Part shown: positions 3,242 through 64,000 of the stretch, one piece after another
How positions within the stretch are numbered: position 1 is the stretch's first letter
How the letters are laid out: the number at the start of each line of letters is the position of its first letter
DNA from: Candidatus Liptonbacteria bacterium
GTDB taxonomy: Bacteria; Patescibacteriota; Minisyncoccia; UBA6257; 2-01-FULL-56-20
DNA length: 64,000 bases
Assembly (NCBI GenBank): GCA_016867315.1
Contig: VGJV01000003.1
Location: 27,429-91,428 of the forward strand
Direction: 5' to 3'
Notes under the pieces: model-generated
Database searches by the model: none
What the model was told of the DNA's origin: nothing
The model's input: the letters and a program-made list of their open reading frames with translations, nothing else
Position numbers and translations under genes: made by a program

Positions 3242-4912
3242 ATGCTTACGGACGAACTTCGCCCAATTATAAAAGGAGAAGTAGAGGACGATGAGAAGAC
3301 GCTTGAGGCGCACAGCCGGGACTATTCGATTTTTCGCGTGAAGCCGGAAGTGGTGGTTTTCCCAAAAGACGCTGAAGATGTGAAGAGTTTAGTGAAATTT
3401 GTAAGTAAAGAGAAGAAAAAAGGCAGACAGATTTCTCTCACGGGACGCGCGGCGGGGACCGACATGACCGGCGGGCCTCTTTCCGGCTCGATCGTGGTCA
3501 ATTTCACGCGTCATATGAACCGAATCAAAAAAATAGAGGGGGATTCCTTCTCCGGTTCCGGCCAAGCGTACGCCATCGTGGAACCCGGAGTATATTTCCG
3601 GGACTTTGAGCGGGAAATTGCGAAGCGGGGATTGATGTATCCCTCGTATCCCGCCTCGAAAGAACTGTGTGCGATCGGCGGGATAGTGATGAATAATTCC
3701 GGTGGAGAGAAGACGCTTCGGTACGGAAAAACCGAGGAATATGTAGAAAGTATCAATATGGTCCTTGCGGACGGAGAGGAGCATCATATAACTCCTCTTT
3801 CGAGCGGCGCACTCAAAGAAAAACTCAAAAAAAGAGATTTGGAGGCAACCTTATGGAGAAAACTCAAAGCGCTCCTTGAAAAAAACGGAGCCCTTATTGC
3901 GGGCGCAAGGCCTGAAGTTTCCAAAAATTCTTCCGGCTATCCGCTTTGGAATATATGGGATGGGAATACCTTCGATCCCGTGAAATTATGTGTGGGTTCG
4001 CAAGGTACGTTGGGGCTTATGACCGAGGTACGTGTGCGCCTCTTACCGCAGCCGAAGCACAGTCGCCTGGTAGTGATATTCTTGCGCAACCTCTCTCCGC
4101 TTGCGGCCTTAGTGAATACTCTCTTGGACTTTAAACCCGAAAGCATCGAATCCTACGACGACAAAACGCTGGGAGTAGTGCTTCGATATTTGCCGAGTTT
4201 TATTCGGTCAATGAAGGGGAGTTTCTTCAAGCTTTTGTGGGAATTCTTGCCCGAAGCCGGGATGGCGCTTCGAGGGGGAATTCCAAAGATGGTCCTCTTG
4301 GTGGAACTTACTGCGGAGAGTGAAGGAGAGCTCCGGGCGAAGACAATGAGGTTGGTGCAAGTAGTGCGTCGGAATTTCCGAATTCCTGTACGTGCAATTC
4401 GCGATAAAGCCGAAGAAGAAAAATATTGGACGATCCGAAGACAAAGCTTCGCCTTGCTGCATGGGCATATTAAAGACCGAGATACCGCCCCGTTTATCGA
4501 TGATATTGCAGTGCGTCCAGAGCATCTTCCCGAATTTCTTCCCAAATTGAACGCAATTCTCGAGCCATATAAAAAATCGCTCATATACACCATCGCGGGG
4601 CATCCCGGGGACGGGAATTTTCATATAATCCCGCTGATGGACTTGAAAAACCCCGAAGTGAGAAATCTGATCCCGACTATTTCAGAGAAGGTATATAATC
4701 TTGTGTTGGAATATCATGGCACGATTACGGGGGAGCACAACGATGGCCTCATTCGTACGCCGTATGTAGAAAAAATGTATGGCAAAGAAATGGCGGATCT
4801 TTTCGAGGCAGTGAAGACTCTTTTCGATCCGCAAGATATTTTTAATCCAGGAAAAAAAGTAAGAGGCACGCTCGCGTATGCTCTGGATCACATCTCGAGT
4901 GCTAGGCAGTAA
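3242..4912 (+). CDS. FAD-binding oxidoreductase (FAD-linked oxidase/GlcD-like dehydrogenase family)
   Basis: 556 aa. An N-terminal FAD-binding PCMH-type region (VVFPKDAEDVKSLVKF…RAAGTDMTGG) is followed by a C-terminal FAD-oxidase-like region. Confidence 0.7.
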   Translation: MLTDELRPIIKGEVEDDEKTLEAHSRDYSIFRVKPEVVVFPKDAEDVKSLVKFVSKEKKKGRQISLTGRAAGTDMTGGPLSGSIVVNFTRHMNRIKKIEGDSFSGSGQAYAIVEPGVYFRDFEREIAKRGLMYPSYPASKELCAIGGIVMNNSGGEKTLRYGKTEEYVESINMVLADGEEHHITPLSSGALKEKLKKRDLEATLWRKLKALLEKNGALIAGARPEVSKNSSGYPLWNIWDGNTFDPVKLCVGSQGTLGLMTEVRVRLLPQPKHSRLVVIFLRNLSPLAALVNTLLDFKPESIESYDDKTLGVVLRYLPSFIRSMKGSFFKLLWEFLPEAGMALRGGIPKMVLLVELTAESEGELRAKTMRLVQVVRRNFRIPVRAIRDKAEEEKYWTIRRQSFALLHGHIKDRDTAPFIDDIAVRPEHLPEFLPKLNAILEPYKKSLIYTIAGHPGDGNFHIIPLMDLKNPEVRNLIPTISEKVYNLVLEYHGTITGEHNDGLIRTPYVEKMYGKEMADLFEAVKTLFDPQDIFNPGKKVRGTLAYALDHISSARQ

Positions 4913-4992: not shown

Positions 4993-5733
4993 ATGTACCA
5001 AATCCCAGAATTAAATAAATTTCCAAAGCTTCTCCATAATATTTCTCATAAAGAAGAGGGGAATATGTCCTTCCGATGGGGAGGACAGGTTCTCTCGAAT
5101 CGAGAGAGGTTTTTAATAAAAGTAGGAGTGGGGCTTGAGATGTGTGTGGGTGCGAGTCTTGAACATGAAACAAAAGTAACGCGCGTCGAGACGAAACACC
5201 GGGGAATGGGCATGCGAGACCCGGAGACTGCAGTGCCCGGAGACGCGTTTCTTACGAATGCTCCGGGGACATTTCTATTTCTTCTCACGGGGGATTGCTT
5301 GCCTATTGCTGTGTATGACCCCATGGAGAAGGTGGTGGGGTTAGTACATGCGAGCCGGAAAAATTCTCCTCTCGGCCTCATGAGAAAAGTAATCGATCGT
5401 ATGGAAGAATGGTACGGCTCAAAAGCTAAAAATATAGTAGTGAGTATCGGGCCGGGAGTACGAAAAGAAAGTTATATATTCCCCCCAGTTATGAAAGAAG
5501 AACTTATGCCAATATGGAAGAAATTCCTTATAAAGATAGATGAGGAAAAATTTGCATTAGACGTAGTGGGCATGAATAGTGCAGAACTTAGAAATTCGGG
5601 AGTGCGGGAAGAAAATATCCACGTTGCTCCTCAGGACACCATCGCCGATCCGGCTTTTTTCTCCCATTATCGCAGCCGCCTCACGGGGGAAGCCGAGGGG
5701 AGAATGGCCACGGTTTTAGGAATTAAGTCTTGA
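4993..5733 (+). CDS. purine nucleoside phosphorylase/polyphenol oxidase YfiH/PgeF (DUF152) family
   Basis: Conserved LTGDCLPIAVYDP…GLVHASRKNS…SIGPG core of the YfiH family. The true start is probably downstream of the 4993 ATG. Confidence 0.65.
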   Translation: MYQIPELNKFPKLLHNISHKEEGNMSFRWGGQVLSNRERFLIKVGVGLEMCVGASLEHETKVTRVETKHRGMGMRDPETAVPGDAFLTNAPGTFLFLLTGDCLPIAVYDPMEKVVGLVHASRKNSPLGLMRKVIDRMEEWYGSKAKNIVVSIGPGVRKESYIFPPVMKEELMPIWKKFLIKIDEEKFALDVVGMNSAELRNSGVREENIHVAPQDTIADPAFFSHYRSRLTGEAEGRMATVLGIKS

Positions 5734-28479: not shown

Positions 28480-30354
28480 ATGCCTAAAATAATTGGAATC
28501 GATCTTGGAACCACAAATTCCGCGGTAGCGGTAATGGAGGGGGGAGAACCTCGGATACTCGAGAATGCCGAAGGCAACCGCACCACCCCCTCAGTTGTAG
28601 CGTTAAACAAAGCAGGCGAACGTTTGGTGGGATTGCTTGCCAAGCTTCAGTCGGTTACGAATCCTAAAAACACCATCTTTTCGGTAAAACGCCTTATGGG
28701 ACGTAAGTTTAGTGATGAGCATGTTACGGGAGATCGCAAATGGCTCCCGTACGACGTTCAAAATTCCCAAACGGGAGGAGTAGAAGTAAAGATGGGAGAT
28801 AAATGGTATTCCCCGGAAGAAATTTCTGCATTTATCTTGGCAAAAATAAAAGCGGATGCCGAATCCAAACTTGGCGAGAAGGTGGAGGAAGCCGTCATTA
28901 CGGTACCGGCATATTTCGACGATTCGCAGCGGCAAGCGACCAAAAATGCAGGAGAAATTGCAGGCCTTAAAGTGCGTCGGATTTTAAACGAACCCACGGC
29001 GGCTGCGCTCGCCTATGGGATGAATAAACAAAAAAATGAAAAAATCGTCGTCTATGATTTCGGGGGTGGAACTTTTGATATTTCAGTGCTCGAAGTGGGA
29101 GATGACACTGTAGAAGTTCGGGCCACCGGAGGAGATACGCACCTGGGAGGAGATGATTTTGATAAGCGGCTCATCGAATATCTCGTAAATGAATACAAGA
29201 AAGCCGAAGGCATCGATATCTCGAAAGACCCACTTGCCCTGCAGCGCTTAAAAGAGGCCGCAGAGCGGGCGAAGCACGAACTTTCAACTGCCGCCGCCAC
29301 GGAGGTAAATCTGCCCTACATTACTTCGGATGCTTCGGGCCCCAAACACTTCCTGGTCCAAGTGACCCGGGCGAAACTTGAAGAGCTCGTACGCGATTAT
29401 ATCGAGCGCTCGATTGAGCTTACTCGGGAAACAGTGACGGCGCCTGCTCCCCGCGGTGCAGGCTTTGCCCTCACGGATATCAATGAAGTGATCTTGGTGG
29501 GAGGACAAACGCGTATGCCGGCCATGGTAGAAGCCGTAAAAAAACTCTTTAATAAAGAACCGCACAAAGGAATCAACCCAGACGAAGTAGTAGCGGTAGG
29601 GGCAGCGGTACAAGCCGGGATTCTCCAAGGAGATGTAAAGGATATCCTTCTACTGGACGTAACTCCGCTCACGCTTTCAATCGAAACACTGGGAAGCGTA
29701 GCTACTCCGATGATCCCGAAGAATACCACGGTGCCCACCGCAAAAACCCAAGTATTCTCGACCGCAAGCGACAACCAAACCTCTGTGGAGGTGCATGTGC
29801 TCCAAGGGGAACGGCCGATGGCAGCGGATAATAAAACGCTCGCACGATTTATGCTCGACGGTATTCCTCCGGCTCCCCGGGGAGTGCCGCAAGTGGAAGT
29901 AGTCTTCGACATCGATGCGAATGGGATATTGAATGTGAGTGCGAAAGATAAGGCGAGTGGTAAATCTCAGTCAGTGAAAATCCAGGCTTCCACGAATCTT
30001 TCTCGGGAAGAAATAGAAAAACTGAAGCAAGAGGCTGCCTCGCATGCTGCAGAAGACGCAAAACGTAAAGAATTAGCCGAAGTTAAAAATCAGGCCGAAA
30101 GTACGGTGTATCTCGCCGAGAAGGCTCTGAAGGATGGAGGAGAAAAAGTACCGGCAGACGTGAAAAAAACCGTGGAAGAAAAAGTTGAAGCTTTAAAGAA
30201 GGTAAAAGATGGAGAAGACGCGCAGGCAATAAAGGTGGCGCTAGAAGCCCTTTCTGCCGAAATTCAAAAAATCGGCCAGGCGTTCTATAATAATCCAGGG
30301 AATCAGACTCCTCCTAACCAACAAACTAATGATCCGGGACCTCAGCAGTCCTAA
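28480..30354 (+). CDS. dnaK: molecular chaperone DnaK (Hsp70)
   Basis: [18 protein letters not shown] and [15 protein letters not shown] Hsp70 signatures. Confidence 0.95.
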
Positions 30355-31351
30355 ACCAAATGATGCCGGGAACCTGGTGGCACAAGTGCCGCTGGAAACC
30401 GAGGAGCGCTCGAGCGGATTTTACTTCTCCCTCGTATTAGACGTCTTGACCGTAGCCTTCGCATTCTGGACGGGGCTCATGTACCAGAGTTTCCTAACCG
30501 GCGAGGCCTCGCTTGGAGGAGTAGCTGCGGTGGCAACGCTTTTCGGCACATTTTTGGCCGTGGGACTATATCTCACGAGGCACGCAGGGAGGCGAATACT
30601 TGTGATTGTGGGAGTAATCGTAGGACTGTTCCTTTTTACGCTTACGCCGGGAAACGCAGCGTACGTAGGTCTCTCGGCAATACTCACGTTTCTGCTTCTC
30701 CTTTGGGGGGAAGCACTGGCCCGCGCGAGGATCGCGAATTCTTTGGAGGTCCGTTTCACCCATGGAGTACAGCCTCTGCTGTCGAAAGCTACGACTGCGC
30801 TGGTTTTTTCCGGATTAATCCTCTTTATTCCGATATGGACTCCGGCGAAAGCGTTCCTGTCTCCCGCGGAATTCAATTCTTATTATGAAGTTATTGGGGG
30901 CACGCTCCATCGCTTCTACGGAGAAATAAATTTTTCCGGCACATTTGATCAATTCGCAAGCAGTTTGGCTCGTTACGAACTCTTAGGGAATGCGGATTTC
31001 AAGCGTCTCCCGCCGAGCAGGCAAGCGGCAGTAACAGAAGAAGTAACTGTGAAAGTAAAAGAAAATCTTGGAAAAACATTGGAAGTCAAAGTTGAAGAGG
31101 GCAAGAAATCTATGGGCGCAATATTCTATAAACTTTCTATGCGTACCCTCGGAGATCTGCAAGGGAAATTCGGAACTTGGTTTCTTGTAGGCTGGGCTAT
31201 TCTTTTATTTGCCATAATCCGCGGAGTAGGAGTGTTCCTATATTGGATTGCCGGTTTGCTAGGCCTTCTTATGTTTCACATTCTCCTTTTGTTAGGAATA
31301 ACGCGACTAAGAGGGGAAACGCGCACGCAGCAAGTGGCAGAATATATTTAA
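30329..31351 (+). CDS. hypothetical polytopic membrane protein inserted between dnaK and dnaJ
   Basis: 340 aa with multiple TM helices and no recognised domain. Confidence 0.5.
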
Positions 31352-31421: not shown

Positions 31422-32492
31422 ATGAAGGATTACTACAAAATATTAGGAGTGGAACGCGGAGCGACGGAGGAAGAAATTAAAAAGGCATATAGAAAATTAG
31501 CGCACCAGCATCACCCTGACAAAAGCGGTGGAAATGAAACCAAATTCAAAGAAATAAACGAGGCGTATCAAGTGCTCTCGGACAAGAAAAAGAGAGAGAC
31601 GTATGATCGTTTTGGTACCGCGGAGCCCGGAGGATTCGGTGCCGGCGGTTTTTCATGGGATGGATTTGGTTTCGATTCGCAGGGAATGGGAGATATGGGG
31701 AATTTAGGTGATATTTTCGAAGATCTTTTTGAAAATCTTGGAGTACGTCCTCGTCGACGTTCCTATGCTCATGGATCTGATTTGGAAGTCAAAGAAGAAA
31801 TCACGTTAGAAGAAGCGCTTCGAGGAAAAGCGAAACACATAGAATTTAAAACGCTCGGGAAATGTGAAACCTGCAAAGGCCAAGGGGCGGATGCGGAAGC
31901 CGGATTTTCTCAGTGTGCGGCATGCGGAGGCCAAGGAGAAATTCGAATGGATAGAAGGACGTTCTTCGGAAGTTTTTCGCAGGTAAAGGCCTGCGAGAAG
32001 TGTCACGGCATGGGCCAAATCCCCAAAAAAGTTTGCAAAGTATGCAATGGCAATGGACGAATCTCCATTACAAGAGAAGTAGATGTAGAAATTCTTCCGG
32101 GCATCGAAGATAATCAGCTCATTCAGGTAAAAGGCATGGGGGAAGCGGGAGAGCGCGGAAGTGCCGCGGGAGACCTTTATGTACGCGTGCGCATTAAGCC
32201 GCACTCGGCGTTTGAACGCCGCGGCGACGACTTGATCGTAAAAAAAGAGTTGAAACTCAAAGATGTCCTTCTCGGTAATAAAGTGGAAGTGAAAACATTA
32301 GCGGGCGGGACCCTTCATGTGGAAATTCCACCGCACTTTAATTTAAAAGATCTTTTGAGGATTCCGGGAGAAGGAATGCCCCGGTTCGGCTCTTCGAGAA
32401 GGGGAGACCTCCTTGTGGATTTCATATTAAAAGCTCCGGCCCGCCTGAACCCTAAAGATAAAAAGGCGTTCGAGGATCTGCTTAAGGATTAA
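31422..32492 (+). CDS. dnaJ: molecular chaperone DnaJ
   Basis: J-domain HPD motif (HHPDKS), a G/F region, four CxxCxGxG zinc-finger repeats and the C-terminal domain. Confidence 0.9.
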
Positions 32493-32495
32493 AAT

Positions 32496-32569
32496 TGGTG
32501 CCCCCACTTGGAATCGGACCAAGGTCAACTGCTTAAAAGGCAGCTGCTTTACCACTAAGCTATGGGGGC
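32496..32569 (-). tRNA. tRNA-Lys (anticodon UUU), CCA encoded
   Basis: Reverse complement GCCCCCATAGCTTAGTGGTAAAGCAGCTGCCTTTTAAGCAGTTGACCTTGGTCCGATTCCAAGTGGGGGCACCA folds as a cloverleaf with a 7-bp acceptor stem, T-loop TCCGATT and anticodon loop CTTTTAA. Confidence 0.8.
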
Positions 32570-32576
32570 ATTCCCC

Positions 32577-32612
32577 GTCCACCCACCAGGACTTGAACCT
32601 GGAACCATCTCC
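32577..32612 (-). repeat. 36-bp exact copy of the 3' half (T-arm plus acceptor 3' strand) of tRNA-Lys(CUU), followed by a GC hairpin (32614-32632)
   Basis: 32577-32612 is identical to 32737-32772. The copy diverges exactly where the anticodon arm would begin. Confidence 0.7.
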
Positions 32613-32738
32613 TGGCGAAACGATGTTTCGCCAATTGGTTCGTTCGGCAAAAATAATTTTTGTACTTTCGCCTCACTATCAATTGTAAGAGGATAGTTGC
32701 TCCTTGTCCCGTAGATATCTTATGTTGGATTCCCTTTG

Positions 32739-32811
32739 TCCACCCACCAGGACTTGAACCTGGAACCATCTCCTTAAGAGGGAGTTGCTCTGCCAATTGA
32801 GCTATGGGTGG
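32739..32811 (-). tRNA. tRNA-Lys (anticodon CUU), CCA not encoded
   Basis: Reverse complement CCACCCATAGCTCAATTGGCAGAGCAACTCCCTCTTAAGGAGATGGTTCCAGGTTCAAGTCCTGGTGGGTGGA. Acceptor stem CCACCCA/TGGGTGG, T-loop TTCAAGT, anticodon loop CTCTTAA. Confidence 0.75.
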
Positions 32812-32839
32812 ACAAAGGGAATCAAGATATTGTACGGGA

Positions 32840-32861
32840 TGCCAATTGAGCTATGGGTGGA
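32840..32861 (-). repeat. 22-bp copy of the 5' portion (acceptor plus D-arm) of tRNA-Lys(CUU)
   Basis: tgccaattgagctatgggtgga at 32840-32861 is identical to 32791-32812. Confidence 0.6.
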
Positions 32862-32979
32862 AACTGAGCGAAAAAATAATAACAAAATTATAGATTTTGT
32901 AAAAGGCATTTTGAGATAAGGAGGGCTTTTTAAAGCCTTCCCATTTGAAAATATATTTGCTAAACTCTCCCTTAATCAC

Positions 32980-34209
32980 ATGCGACGTCCAGGACTGACT
33001 CTTTCTCTGATTGTCCTTCTCGCAATTATTGCGGGAATCTTCGTATATCCCAAAGGCTTGGGCGAAAAATGGCGCCCATGGAGGTTGGGACTCGACCTCG
33101 TGGGGGGCAGCCATCTTATTTATGGGATTGATTTGAAGGATGTGCAGCAAAAAGACCGCGAAACAGTCGTAAATGGACTTCGAGATGTTATCGAGCGGCG
33201 TGTAAACCTTTTTGGTGTGGGTGAACCGCAAGTATTTGTAGCTTCCGAAGGCGGCCAGAGTCAACTTATCGTAGAACTCGCCGGAGTAAAGGAAATTAGC
33301 GAAGCCATCAAGCAAATCGGGGAAACGCCCTTTTTGGATTTCCGAGAGGTGGAACAGAATGGCACAAGTACCGAATTTATAATGACAAACCTCACGGGCC
33401 GGTACGTGAGGGGTGCCGAACTCACGCTCGATCCCAACATGAATGCGCCGCAGGTAGCTATCACTTTCAATGACGAGGGCGCGCAAATTTTTGAGAAGCT
33501 CACCGAAGCCAATGTGGGGAAGCCGGTGGCAATATTTTTGGATAATACTTTGATCGAAATGCCTACCGTGCAACAAAAGATTTCCGGAGGCAACGCAGTG
33601 ATCACTGGCCGATTCACCATTCAGGAAGCGCAGAAACTTGTCGAAAGATTCAATGCGGGAGCATTGCCTGCGCCGATTACGCTTATCAATCAACAAACAA
33701 TCAGCCCGAATCTCGGAAGCGATTCTTTAAAAAAGGTTATTTTCGCCGGGGCCATAGGCACATTCCTCGTCATGCTTTTTATGATCTTCTACTATCGCAC
33801 GCTCGGAATTTTTGCCTCGCTCTCCCTTTTGATTTACATCACACTCACGCTCGCAGTCTTCAAGTTGGTGCCAATCACGCTCACACTCGCTGGGTTGGCT
33901 GGGTTCATACTCACGATAGGAATGGCGGTAGACGCGAACATTTTAATTTTTGAGCGGATGAAAGAAGAAATACAGCGAGGACTTACAAAGGCGGCGTCGC
34001 GCACCGAAGGATTTCGCCGTGCTTGGCCTTCCATTCGGGATTCCAATACCTCGACGATTCTTACTGCGATCATTCTTTACTTCTTTACTTCGAGTTTTGT
34101 GCAGGGATTTGCGCTTACGCTCCTCATCGGAACTCTGGTAAGTATGTTCTCGGCAATCACCACCACCCGTTACTTCCTCCAAGTGTTTTTAAAAGAGCGC
34201 GCAAGATGA
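32980..34209 (+). CDS. secD: protein translocase subunit SecD
   Basis: N-terminal TM, a periplasmic domain and a C-terminal 6-TM SecD/F core (GPSLGSD…, AGLAGFILTIGMAVDANILIFERMKEE). Confidence 0.85.
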   Translation: MRRPGLTLSLIVLLAIIAGIFVYPKGLGEKWRPWRLGLDLVGGSHLIYGIDLKDVQQKDRETVVNGLRDVIERRVNLFGVGEPQVFVASEGGQSQLIVELAGVKEISEAIKQIGETPFLDFREVEQNGTSTEFIMTNLTGRYVRGAELTLDPNMNAPQVAITFNDEGAQIFEKLTEANVGKPVAIFLDNTLIEMPTVQQKISGGNAVITGRFTIQEAQKLVERFNAGALPAPITLINQQTISPNLGSDSLKKVIFAGAIGTFLVMLFMIFYYRTLGIFASLSLLIYITLTLAVFKLVPITLTLAGLAGFILTIGMAVDANILIFERMKEEIQRGLTKAASRTEGFRRAWPSIRDSNTSTILTAIILYFFTSSFVQGFALTLLIGTLVSMFSAITTTRYFLQVFLKERAR

Positions 34210-36286: not shown

Positions 36287-37642
36287 ATGGGTTTCGATCT
36301 CGGCGGAATTATCATTGAATTTTTAGACCTCACCAAATGGTTCTGGGTCTTTTTTATTCTATGGCCGCTCTTTAAGTCCACTTGGATCGGGTGGAGGCAG
36401 TTTGAATATGAGCATTCAAGCCAGTTCCGGCAAAATATGTTCGAGATCCGAATTCCTCGAGAAATCCGTAAGAGTCCTCGCGCGATGGAACAGGTACTTA
36501 TGGCACTTCATTCGTTGCGAAATGTAGCCGGAGACTTCGAGGAAATTTGGAAAGACGGAGAAATCACCAAATGGTTTACGCTCGAGATTTGCAGCTTCGG
36601 AGGAGAAATTCGTTTTTTTATTCGGTATTATTACAAGCAAAGGCCCCTCGTGGAGGCTGCGTTCTTCTCATATTATCCGGACGTTGAGCTTGTAGAGGTT
36701 GATGATTATATGGAAGATCTGCCGAAAGATATGGATGAGGTGTATGCCAAGGGATTGAGCATTTGGGGAGCAGAAATGGTGTTAAGAAAAGAGGAAGCAT
36801 ACCCTATTCGCACCTACCCTTTATTTGAAGCTCCAGATGAAGAACGGCAATATGATCCGATCTCTCTTACTCTTGAAGTACTAGGAAAAGCTAAAAAAGA
36901 AGAATTTATAGGCGTACAATTTTTGATTTCTCCCGCTTCAGATTGCTGGCAGGATGAATGGAAAGGACTCGTAGAACATCTCAAAGAACAAAGCGGCAAA
37001 AAACAAGGCGCCGCCGCGAAACCTAAAACCAAAACCGAATTCCCAGGAGGAATACTTCCCGCATTTCACGTGGAAAGCCCCAAAGAAGACCCGCTGGCTT
37101 CGCTTCGAGTCACACGGACTCCCGGAGAAACAAATGTTCTTGAGGCTATGGAAAATAATCTCTCCAAGCCCGCGTTTGAGACTGTAGCTCGTTTTATATA
37201 TCTTTCACCCTCGCCTCTTTTCTACGATTCCTTTGCCCGCCGTGGTATCGCAGGAATGTTCAATCAATACGCCGCGCAAGACCTGAATTCCTTCAAAAGA
37301 AATGACGAGGTAAGTACCCGTGTTCGGCCTTGGAATTGGCCTCATGTATTCTGGAATATCCGTGCGGAATATCGTAAGTCGGGATTACTATGGCAGTATA
37401 GACATCGACTAATGCCATTCCATACTTTTATGGCGAAACTCATCACTTCCCATTGGTTTTATTGGAATTTCAATTCAAAGACCATTACGCTAAATGTAGA
37501 AGCGATCGCAACACTTTTTCATCCGCCCACTTTTCTCGTGCTTACTGCGCCGCATATTAGACGCGTCGAAAGCCGCAAGACTGGCCCCCCTGCGGGACTT
37601 GCCATATACGGAAACGAAAAAGACATCGAACGATTTCAATGA
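36287..37642 (+). CDS. hypothetical membrane-anchored protein (451 aa), first gene of a 3-gene module ending in a TrwB/VirD4-like ATPase
   Basis: N-terminal TM helix (WFWVFFILWPLF), then a large soluble domain with no known motif. Confidence 0.5.
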   Translation: MGFDLGGIIIEFLDLTKWFWVFFILWPLFKSTWIGWRQFEYEHSSQFRQNMFEIRIPREIRKSPRAMEQVLMALHSLRNVAGDFEEIWKDGEITKWFTLEICSFGGEIRFFIRYYYKQRPLVEAAFFSYYPDVELVEVDDYMEDLPKDMDEVYAKGLSIWGAEMVLRKEEAYPIRTYPLFEAPDEERQYDPISLTLEVLGKAKKEEFIGVQFLISPASDCWQDEWKGLVEHLKEQSGKKQGAAAKPKTKTEFPGGILPAFHVESPKEDPLASLRVTRTPGETNVLEAMENNLSKPAFETVARFIYLSPSPLFYDSFARRGIAGMFNQYAAQDLNSFKRNDEVSTRVRPWNWPHVFWNIRAEYRKSGLLWQYRHRLMPFHTFMAKLITSHWFYWNFNSKTITLNVEAIATLFHPPTFLVLTAPHIRRVESRKTGPPAGLAIYGNEKDIERFQ

Positions 37643-62882: not shown

Positions 62883-62984
62883 AAGAATGCTACAATTCTG
62901 AAGTAGCCTAGCATTTAAGAATCACGGAGTGTTAATTGAAAATTGGGAGTAATTCGCAATTCACAATTCTAAATTCTCAATTCC

Positions 62985-64000
62985 ATGAATAAAATTCGAA
63001 TCGCACTCACGGGCGGCGGGAGCGGGGGACACGTATACCCCCTGCTTGCAATTGCGGAAGAGCTCCAGCGGATCGGCACGGCACAAAAAGCGAATCTGGA
63101 AATAGTACACTTTGGCCCGAAAGACGCATTTGCGCCGTTATTTACTAACGCGGGAATAAAGCGCCGCTCAATAATGGGCGCGAAGCTTCGCAGCTATTCC
63201 ACGCTTCAAAATATCCTCGACGTTCCAAAGTTTTTCATAGGAATCTTTCAGGCCTTTTTAAAGATTTTTTGGTATATGCCCGACGTGATTTTTTCGAAAG
63301 GTGGTCCCGGCGCCTTCCCCGTAGTACTTGCAGGCTGGTTTTATAAAATTCCGATACTCATCCACGAATCCGATGCCATCCCCGGAGCCACGAATATCCT
63401 ATCGTCCCATTTTGCCACGCGAATCGCAATTACATTCGAGGAAGCCAAACGTTATTTTGACCCGACCAGAACCGCTACGGTAGGCAATCCCGTACGGCCC
63501 TGGCTTATTAAAGACAAACCCGAACCGAAAGTTGCGAAACAACTCCTCGGATTCAACCCCGAAGCTCCGCTCACGGTAATACTAGGAGGTTCACAAGGCT
63601 CTCAAAGAATCAACGAATTTATAGTCGCAAATCTTCCCACAATCCTTAAAGAAACACAACTTTTTCATCAAACAGGTACGAACAATTTTTCTGAGATTGA
63701 AGCCCTCTCCAAGGCGGCGTTCCCAAGTGCCACGTCTTATAAAGTGGTGGCGTATATAACTGAAGAGCTCAAAAATGTACTGGCAGCTGCTGATTGCATA
63801 GTGGGACGCGCAGGAAATGGCACGATCTCAGAAGCTGCTGCATTTGGAAAACCCATGATCCTCATCCCTCTGCCGGAATCCGCGAATGATCATCAACGGG
63901 CAAACGCGCGAGAGTTTAAAAAAGTAGGTGGGGGAATAATCATCGAAGAAGCGAATCTTCTCCAGGAAATTTTCGTGAGTGCCTTGAAAAAAATACTCAC
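62985..64000 (+). CDS. murG: undecaprenyldiphospho-muramoylpentapeptide beta-N-acetylglucosaminyltransferase MurG (5' part; runs off the window)
   Basis: MNKIRIALTGGGSGGHVYPLLAIAEEL glycine-rich N-terminus and a C-terminal GT-B domain with a conserved G.G…E motif. Not in the ORF track because it is truncated by the window end. Confidence 0.8.
   Translation, partial: MNKIRIALTGGGSGGHVYPLLAIAEELQRIGTAQKANLEIVHFGPKDAFAPLFTNAGIKRRSIMGAKLRSYSTLQNILDVPKFFIGIFQAFLKIFWYMPDVIFSKGGPGAFPVVLAGWFYKIPILIHESDAIPGATNILSSHFATRIAITFEEAKRYFDPTRTATVGNPVRPWLIKDKPEPKVAKQLLGFNPEAPLTVILGGSQGSQRINEFIVANLPTILKETQLFHQTGTNNFSEIEALSKAAFPSATSYKVVAYITEELKNVLAAADCIVGRAGNGTISEAAAFGKPMILIPLPESANDHQRANAREFKKVGGGIIIEEANLLQEIFVSALKKIL

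Follow-up and report, generated by a model that had tools for sequence, protein, structure and literature searches.

A broken tRNA-Lys(CUU) gene enclosing its intact copy, with a hairpin element in its anticodon loop, in a Candidatus Liptonbacteria contig

In a 64-kb stretch of the Candidatus Liptonbacteria assembly GCA_016867315.1 (contig VGJV01000003.1, positions 27,429–91,428; hereafter the window, 64,000 nucleotides (nt) long, whose own numbering is used for all its features), we analyzed a tRNA-Lys locus in which one tRNA gene lies inside another. The region 32577–32861 is a complete second tRNA-Lys(CUU) gene that is broken in three and wrapped around the working tRNA-Lys(CUU) gene. The outer gene is interrupted twice: between positions 21 and 22, in the D-loop, by a hairpin that contains the working gene (block A), and between positions 37 and 38, in the anticodon loop, by a small hairpin element (block B) belonging to a family, here called E, that recurs in related genomes (loci and contigs from relatives carry L numbers).

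Two intact tRNA genes, both on the minus strand, were called by ARAGORN and Rfam, as a first-pass annotation made from the sequence alone had read them. tRNA-Lys(UUU), the downstream gene of the pair, lies at 32496–32569 and encodes its CCA (ARAGORN tRNA-Lys(ttt); Rfam RF00005, 72.9 bits), and tRNA-Lys(CUU) lies at 32738–32811 (ARAGORN tRNA-Lys(ctt); Rfam, 66.2 bits), is presumably functional, and has a C1-G72 pair and no encoded CCA. The same tRNA-Lys(CUU) sequence is present in the related loci L001, L002, and L004. ARAGORN detected no tRNA beyond these two in the 64 kb, and, within what ARAGORN and Infernal can detect, the fragments described below are not parts of further complete tRNA genes, a misreading that the first-pass annotation had itself raised.

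The three pieces of the outer gene all lie on the minus strand. Piece 1 (32840–32861) consists of the preceding base (T) and tRNA-Lys(CUU) positions 1–21 and is an exact 22-nt copy of 32791–32812, just as first reported (BLAST E-value of 8e-7). Piece 3 (32577–32613) consists of positions 38–74 and is an exact 37-nt copy of 32738–32774 (E-value of 1.2e-15 against the 64-kb window); the copy had rightly been called perfect, though its length is 37 nt and not 36, and it lies downstream of the intact gene with 124 nt, rather than 126, between them. Both copies are far beyond chance. For a third fragment, we aligned the intact tRNA locally to the 124-nt spacer and compared the score with that of 5000 shuffles. 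The best match, piece 2 (32686–32702, GAGCAACTATCCTCTTA), corresponds to positions 22–37 with one substitution and one inserted base, sits precisely between the other two pieces, and has a score reached by 15 of the 5000 shuffles. The pieces 1–21, 22–37, and 38–74 are thus colinear and complementary on one strand, without overlap or gap, and therefore a disrupted outer tRNA-Lys(CUU) gene encloses the functional copy. The first-pass annotation thus rightly took the fragments as the sign of an insertion into, or disruption of, a tRNA gene; they are real pieces of a broken second gene.

As it stands, with both interruptions, the outer gene is called by neither ARAGORN nor Rfam. Excising both blocks in silico yields a rejoined gene identical to the intact tRNA-Lys(CUU) at 74 of 76 positions, which ARAGORN reports as tRNA-??? 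with a malformed anticodon loop and a 4-base anticodon. The outer copy thus behaves as a tRNA pseudogene in being colinear with a tRNA, interrupted twice, and yielding no canonical tRNA; it is probably a pseudogene whose function is supplied by the inner, intact tRNA-Lys(CUU).

Block B (32614–32685, plus strand, antisense to the tRNAs) is a 72-nt copy of E. We recognized it with a covariance model, R1, built from seven E copies of other genomes, with the window left out and the tRNA-bearing tips trimmed. R1 matches 32613–32689 (+) over model positions 1–93 of 93 with 43.6 bits (E-value of 6.5e-8), the sole significant match in the 64 kb, and block B is a member of the E family. From its left end the element comprises a terminal hairpin H1 (32614–32632); the strands of a basal helix P, AATTGG (32633–32638) and TCAATTG (32679–32685); the two sides of a conserved loop, TTCGTTC (32639–32645) and TCACTA (32673–32678), with the full loop motifs spanning 32637–32645 and 32673–32685; and a second hairpin H2 (32646–32672). 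H1 is the GC hairpin GGCGAAAC-GAT-GTTTCGCC of the first-pass annotation, which had placed it correctly and described it as following the tRNA fragment; on the tRNA strand, it lies 5′ of that fragment. The junctions read ...ctccT/GGCG...CAATTG/TAAGagg (slashes mark the ends of the element). The window copy folds at −26.1 kcal/mol on the tRNA strand vs. −18.7 kcal/mol on the other; in other E copies, both strands fold equally well. A second full-length R1 match at 62909–62987 (+; 14.3 bits, E-value of 0.69) has several broken pairs and is probably due to chance.

Across relatives, E is a long hairpin of about 72–90 nt without coding capacity, formed by the terminal hairpin H1, a basal helix of 7–8 bp, a conserved internal loop (GGTTCGYTC on one side, TCRCTRYC or, more narrowly, TCRCTGCC on the other), and the variable long hairpin H2. 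In ten copies, the basal helix together with the foot of H2 shows pairing in 94.6% of cells, and 10 of the 17 helix pairs are changed on both sides; the covariation score was reached by none of 500 shuffles, and partner columns slid out of register were only 30–55% paired. The junctions T/element...G/TAA occur in 9 of 11 copies. Since the anticodon loop of tRNA-Lys(CUU) contains the palindrome CTTAAG, which is an E-type target on either strand, an antisense E can stand at 37/38 in the window, as against the sense E at 35/36 in tRNA-Lys(UUU) genes of relatives. Rfam 15, searched at E-values of up to 1 with the window region and seven related loci, returned the tRNAs but no family matching E and no intron, ribozyme, or known motif; its sub-threshold matches merely overlap tRNA sequence (Plastid-ycf2, matched by antisense tRNA; YrlA, 28.5 vs. 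69 bits; and similar).

Copies of E also occur outside tRNA anticodon loops. One, in L092 (4840–4920), interrupts an outer pseudo-tRNA within its T-loop, antisense to the tRNA, and another lies between tRNA-Met and its 3′ fragment in L021 (6284–6365), likewise antisense. Three more (L019 3604–3691, L021 3600–3684, L093 2625–2706) share an orthologous intergenic site of the dnaK-dnaJ operon, with a gene for a membrane protein on one side and a 66-aa open reading frame (ORF) on the other; the genes there share one strand, and E is antisense to the operon. This site is empty in L018 near 3745 (gggATT/AAAtttttctaaaa), and the helices of the three filled copies differ by compensatory changes; in the operon, E may act as an RNA processing or stability element. 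All E copies without a tRNA, at four independent sites, are antisense to local transcription, a placement that is suggestive only.

Block A (32703–32839, minus strand) is a 137-nt imperfect hairpin, as its inverted repeat and RNA fold show. It is made of an outer inverted repeat (TCCCGTACAATATCTT and AAGATATCTACGGGA) and an inner leader/trailer helix (GATTCCCTTTG and CAAAGGGAATC), includes a 19-nt inverted repeat (I1) with 100% complementarity, and folds at −66.6 kcal/mol (z = −8.2) into a long stem with the tRNA cloverleaf at its tip. The leader/trailer helix (in the region 32728–32746 and 32805–32823) also flanks tRNA-Lys(CUU) in L001, L002, and L004, and lengthens the acceptor stem by 9–11 bp in all four genomes, with some changes among them (e.g., GTTCCCTTG and CAAGGGAAC in L004).

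The flanks of the locus bear on which copy occupies the original site. Upstream of the outer 5′ piece, a consensus scan found a promoter-like site (32876–32903, minus strand; TTTACA, 16 nt, TG-TATTAT) with 10 of 12 consensus matches and an extended −10, as a consensus match only, and the upstream stretch ATTATTTTTT(T)CG (ATTATTTTTTCG) aligns with the region upstream of tRNA-Lys(CUU) in L001 and L004. At the other end, tRNA-Lys(UUU) is separated from the outer 3′ piece by the spacer ggggaat (tRNA strand; 32570–32576, minus strand), which is similar to caaagggaat(t), the ancestral spacer of the CUU-UUU pair as seen in L001 and L002. Given the promoter-proximal alignment and the similar spacer, the outer pieces are at the ancestral position and block A behaves as inserted DNA.

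Related loci were collected by DnaJ-anchored scans of 185,579 species genomes and of metagenomes of the Joint Genome Institute (JGI); these scans place the organism of the window in Patescibacteria (Paceibacteria/Parcubacteria-type metagenome-assembled genomes), with a best DnaJ identity of 82%. A scan for partial copies of each tRNA in the 160 related loci gave same-strand fragments at ~20 tRNA genes, with 5′ pieces upstream and 3′ pieces downstream except, apparently, in L048. A further case, L010 4634–4736, has a run of N (a scaffold gap) between a 52-nt copy of a tRNA 5′ part and the gene, and was excluded from this count as an assembly or scaffolding artefact. L001 and L002 hold a plain CUU-UUU pair, and L004 a pair with 3′-half fragments of its own. 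In L069 (5215–5382), two 84-nt tandem repeats each start with exact positions 1–25 of the tRNA-Lys(UUU) that follows.

The nested layout recurs in these relatives. L006, L009, L092, and L125 each have a sense E that interrupts an outer tRNA-Lys(UUU) at 35/36 and holds an intact tRNA-Lys(UUU) in H2, and two of these loci are in complete, chromosome-level genomes (L006, OY970382.1; L009, OY970175.1). L084 carries an E with a tRNA at the apex of H2 and no clear outer halves, and in L004, L058, and L123 the right end of E alone is joined to a 3′ half beside an intact tRNA. An E-interrupted tRNA was accompanied by an intact copy, inside or beside it, in all cases found.

The outer halves track lineage-specific changes of the inner tRNA (71 of 74 positions in L092, 72 of 73 in L125), although the arms of E differ by 35–45% between these two loci; in L006 and L009, the outer halves are decaying. 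Outer and inner copies in relatives thus evolve in concert, most simply by gene conversion, and the exact identity of the window pieces is therefore no proof of a recent event. In L125 (3487–3560), the inner tRNA-Lys(UUU) has G33, where U is almost universal, and the joined outer halves would give the canonical U33; this G33 may be a mere sequencing error or may hint at a role for the outer copy in that genome.

We consider it probable that the outer tRNA-Lys(CUU) gene was split by the E-family block B and by block A, a hairpin carrying the working tRNA. This explanation takes up what the loci display directly, namely the three-piece architecture, the membership of block B in E, the pairing within E, one site seen both filled and empty, the recurring nested layout, and concerted evolution in relatives. 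E would have arrived by insertion at T/TAA in the anticodon loop, being either a small mobile hairpin of the non-autonomous kind or an old relic of one. The break in tRNA-Lys(CUU) would be tolerated only thanks to an intact copy within or beside it, with block A, the D-loop insert, bearing at its apex the intact tRNA-Lys(CUU) together with the native leader/trailer helix of the lineage. Gene conversion with the inner gene, and not a recent origin, would keep the 22-nt and 37-nt pieces identical. The intact tRNA in block A may have come as the cargo of a mobile hairpin, from repair of a broken hairpin, or by fold-back synthesis.

Several observations weigh against this explanation. The window holds a single E copy, and the copies within L021 or L092 are no more alike than those from different genomes; such copy number and divergence are unlike an active miniature inverted-repeat transposable element (MITE), and agree just as well with a motif under selection, as RNA or DNA, or with a very old relic. 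We found no transposase or integrase able to move E in the 64-kb window or in the relatives' fragments of up to ~9 kb, nor a target-site duplication at the junctions of E or long terminal inverted repeats. The arms of block A have no second copy in the 64-kb window and carry none of the E motifs. The outer gene lacks a native 5′ leader, for which an extra deletion must be invoked, a speculative step. No close relative with the dnaJ-tRNA-secD order was among those collected; at the best DnaJ identity, 82%, the tRNA pair is inverted and the neighbors differ. Finally, the perfect outer halves of L125, with G33 in its inner tRNA, leave room for outer copies that are possibly functional in some genomes.

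As to the nature of E itself, the conserved internal loop and the low copy number speak for selection, and the empty site and the insertions in pseudo-tRNA loops speak for mobility; either an old mobile relic or a motif selected as RNA or DNA is conceivable. It resembles MITEs, REPINs, IS200/IS605-derived elements, and Rickettsia palindromic elements in being a small non-coding hairpin found between genes and in dispensable genes, in its presence or absence at one orthologous site (L018 vs. L019, L021, and L093), and in preferring a short target, T/TAA, without target duplication. A target preference without target duplication resembles insertion of the IS200/IS605 type. E differs from these elements in its very low copy number and divergent copies, in that its most conserved part is the internal loop and not the termini, in that the apical loop of some copies houses a complete tRNA gene, and in that no transposase partner was identified. 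A bolder view, which we regard as doubtful, is that hitherto undescribed hairpin elements of Paceibacteria enter tRNA loops at T/TAA-like sites and hold a working tRNA at their apex, acting either as a new type of miniature mobile element with cargo, which makes the host dependent on its tRNA, or as a processing scaffold that assembles a second tRNA from the outer halves, like split or multi-intron tRNAs but in a bacterium. On this view, they would give rise to "tRNA inside tRNA" genes with the inner and outer copy held identical.

The first-pass annotation likened the fragments to the attL/attR footprint of site-specific integration at a tRNA gene and suggested that they may be the scar of an excised or decayed element. 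In this account, an integrative element or prophage entered tRNA-Lys(CUU) and lost nearly all its DNA, leaving attachment (att)-type repeats; in its stronger form, the chief competitor of the explanation we favor, the host tRNA was not rebuilt, the element-borne tRNA-Lys is now essential, and genome reduction deleted the rest. Integrating elements are a known source of partial tRNA genes, which are common in prokaryotes (10.1101/2022.07.05.498093; PMC3293823), and the window shares with att scars the exact, same-strand direct repeats of tRNA parts beside an intact gene that bound short foreign DNA. In particular, 124 nt downstream of the intact gene there is an exact 37-nt repeat that extends to the 3′ end of the tRNA. 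The nested layout, in the order host 5′ part, remnant, tRNA with an identical anticodon, remnant, host 3′ part, is also what a decayed prophage with tRNA-dependent lysogeny should leave, as described for mycobacteriophages such as Fionnbharth with the logic set out for tRNA-Lys-TTT (PMC10865867), with the host tRNA not rebuilt (split at 21/22) and a tRNA that shares its isotype inside the 137-nt insert. However, that system involves a complete temperate phage that has a tyrosine integrase and uses a common core of ~10 bp (PMC10865867), whereas the window insert, of 137 nt (in L006 and its relatives, ~190 nt), contains no genes, shows no core at its junctions, and has an inner tRNA with the leader/trailer helix of the host lineage. 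An attL/attR footprint predicts an intact tRNA and a displaced copy of just one of its ends; here all three parts are present, colinear, and form a whole second gene enclosing the intact one, with two break points, one of them occupied by a discrete 72-nt hairpin element also found outside tRNAs. The intervening DNA measures 27–124 nt, holds no ORF, integrase, or cargo, and, in the 124-nt spacer, resolves into the right arm of the block A hairpin, the 22–37 fragment, and the 72-nt E member rather than decayed cargo. The supposition that no integrative element is there any longer holds, in that the neighbors are the housekeeping genes dnaK, dnaJ, secD, and secF, with no integrase or phage gene nearby. 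The comparison with related loci that the first-pass annotation suggested turned up an integrative element at the site in 0 of 160. Of two sequences searched in 2.9 million viral contigs, a 29-nt stretch of the tRNA 3′ part and E's left end, neither had a match. We therefore judge an integration scar unlikely. A degenerate pattern of E was also tried on viral contigs, where the covariance model rejected 80 of 80 among the matches listed, which are thus due to chance.

The partial tRNA duplication also raised by the first-pass annotation comes closer to the layout, as a local duplication or deletion by replication slippage or template switching, with no mobile element and an incidental hairpin. 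Starting from position 22, it expects the intact gene followed by a 22–74 copy and a second trailer, and the trailer-like sequences caaagggaatc and cggggaat both exist; the long inverted repeats around the tRNA could favor fold-back synthesis, and the tandem repeats of L069 show 5′ fragments being carried along. A simple tandem form nevertheless fails, as the flanks of the 5′ fragment are not repeated and the sequences around the two 22-mers are unrelated. The 5′ fragment ends precisely where the downstream copy starts (21/22), which is unexpected from independent truncations, and the 72-nt block matches the E model with the conserved loop and the T/...G/TAA junctions, all of which makes slippage quite unlikely. 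It is highly improbable, in our view, that the outer gene is functional, with A and B as introns and one transcript giving two tRNA-Lys(CUU), be it in the manner of the split or multi-intron tRNAs of archaea, here in a bacterium, or as a group I derivative. Group I introns at 35/36 of tRNA-Asn and tRNA-Asp have been experimentally validated in Patescibacteria (PMC13011429), the same phylum and the same site as the sense E copies of L006, L009, L092, and L125, in which likewise the 5′ part ends in U and the element in G. The perfect outer halves of L125 with G33 in the inner tRNA, and the exact exon-like pieces of the window with unrelated blocks between them, would suit introns as well. Yet E, at 72–90 nt, is below the size of a group I core, had no RF00028 match in the same Rfam search, stands antisense to the tRNA in the window, in the L092 T-loop, and in L021, occurs between genes, and is never found interrupting a tRNA gene alone without an intact copy; the outer halves of L006 and L009 decay visibly, and the substitution and extra base of the 22–37 piece damage the anticodon stem. 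No bacterial tRNA splicing endonuclease is known, which counts against introns too. Archaeal disrupted tRNAs (PMC4390854, PMC4090602) are similar in having hairpin inserts at the D-loop and anticodon loop, and long complementary sequences could hold the outer halves of the window together if the inner tRNA were excised; they differ in that the window is bacterial, its outer copy bears damaging changes, and inspection by eye showed no bulge-helix-bulge motif at the junctions. Lastly, a collapse or chimera of strain variants at a repeated tRNA sequence in a short-read metagenome is scarcely credible, and we rejected it. Several short contigs of the same organism do end in the 37-nt repeat or in tRNA-Lys(UUU), and three Logan contigs end 30 nt into the 37-nt repeat because repeats branch the assembly graph. 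The exact DnaJ protein of the window is present on 13 contigs. Against an artefact, two independent JGI assemblies from different samples (L167 and the 111-kb contig L161) match the window over 32400–33000 (601 nt) with 100% identity, the sequence on both sides of each fragment is unique, and the complete genomes L006 and L009 have the same nested architecture.

The locus works like tRNA-dependent lysogeny in miniature and like palindromic miniature elements, and it lacks the features that define integrase scars, group I introns, and high-copy MITEs. Disruption of a tRNA gene by small inserts is itself known; what sets this locus apart is its nested "tRNA in tRNA" arrangement, together with an element family that Rfam does not contain. 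Exact fragments of a tRNA that lie next to its gene need not be integrase scars, and annotators and island-finding tools that use such fragments as att markers would misread loci of this kind, at which short-read assemblies also break. In ultra-small bacteria, a covarying hairpin family of ~80 nt, outside Rfam, is found repeatedly, both in tRNA loops and within the dnaK-dnaJ operon. The intact tRNA at a hairpin tip within its own broken copy, with both copies evolving in concert, raises the question of how a genome of ~1 Mb tolerates, repairs, or exploits hits to its tRNA genes; there may be a relation to the unusually frequent tRNA introns of the same phylum.

The surroundings of the tRNA pair vary among the relatives. 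In the window, the tRNA-Lys(CUU)-tRNA-Lys(UUU) pair points away from dnaJ, and in the four closest relatives, L001–L004 (~5130–5360), it runs in the direction of dnaJ. Downstream of the pair, the window has secD and L001 a HAD-like gene, and L081 has radC and no tRNA; the pair marks a synteny break or inversion point. Two window ORFs had no Pfam match: 30329–31351 (340 aa), which lies between dnaK and dnaJ and whose 375-aa counterpart in L019 looks hydrophobic, and 36287–37642 (451 aa), which follows a gene with sigma-70 region 4 and HARE-HTH domains.

Other tRNA fragments and inserts were noted in the related loci. One further type is an exact 16–21-nt copy of the T-loop-to-3′-end part of tRNA-Lys, Val, or Leu, ~110–210 nt downstream of the gene (L048 3400–3592, equal to L119 4201–4393; L049 7420–7649; L059 5058–5222; L090 2785–2966; L112 2376–2526; L120 4152–4325; L144 1841–1970; and L153 4168–4312). 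The spacers before these copies are G+C-rich and structured-looking, with no Rfam match for the structures in the loci scanned, and some of their motifs are common to several genomes: GGGGTCGGGGAA...TTCCCCGTCGG in L021 and L048, TAGGGCTCGAA in L048 and L059, and ...AATGCCTTCGGGCAACTC/TTCGATTCC in L144 and L153, with the repeat of L153 extending 7 nt beyond the tRNA end. Another type of insert consists of one or two short GC hairpins, TCCGCC-NNN-GGCGGA (L004 5242–5271, L109 near 3270–3290, and L050 5130–5145), which in pseudo-tRNA-Lys lie inside the T-loop or replace an anticodon-stem strand.

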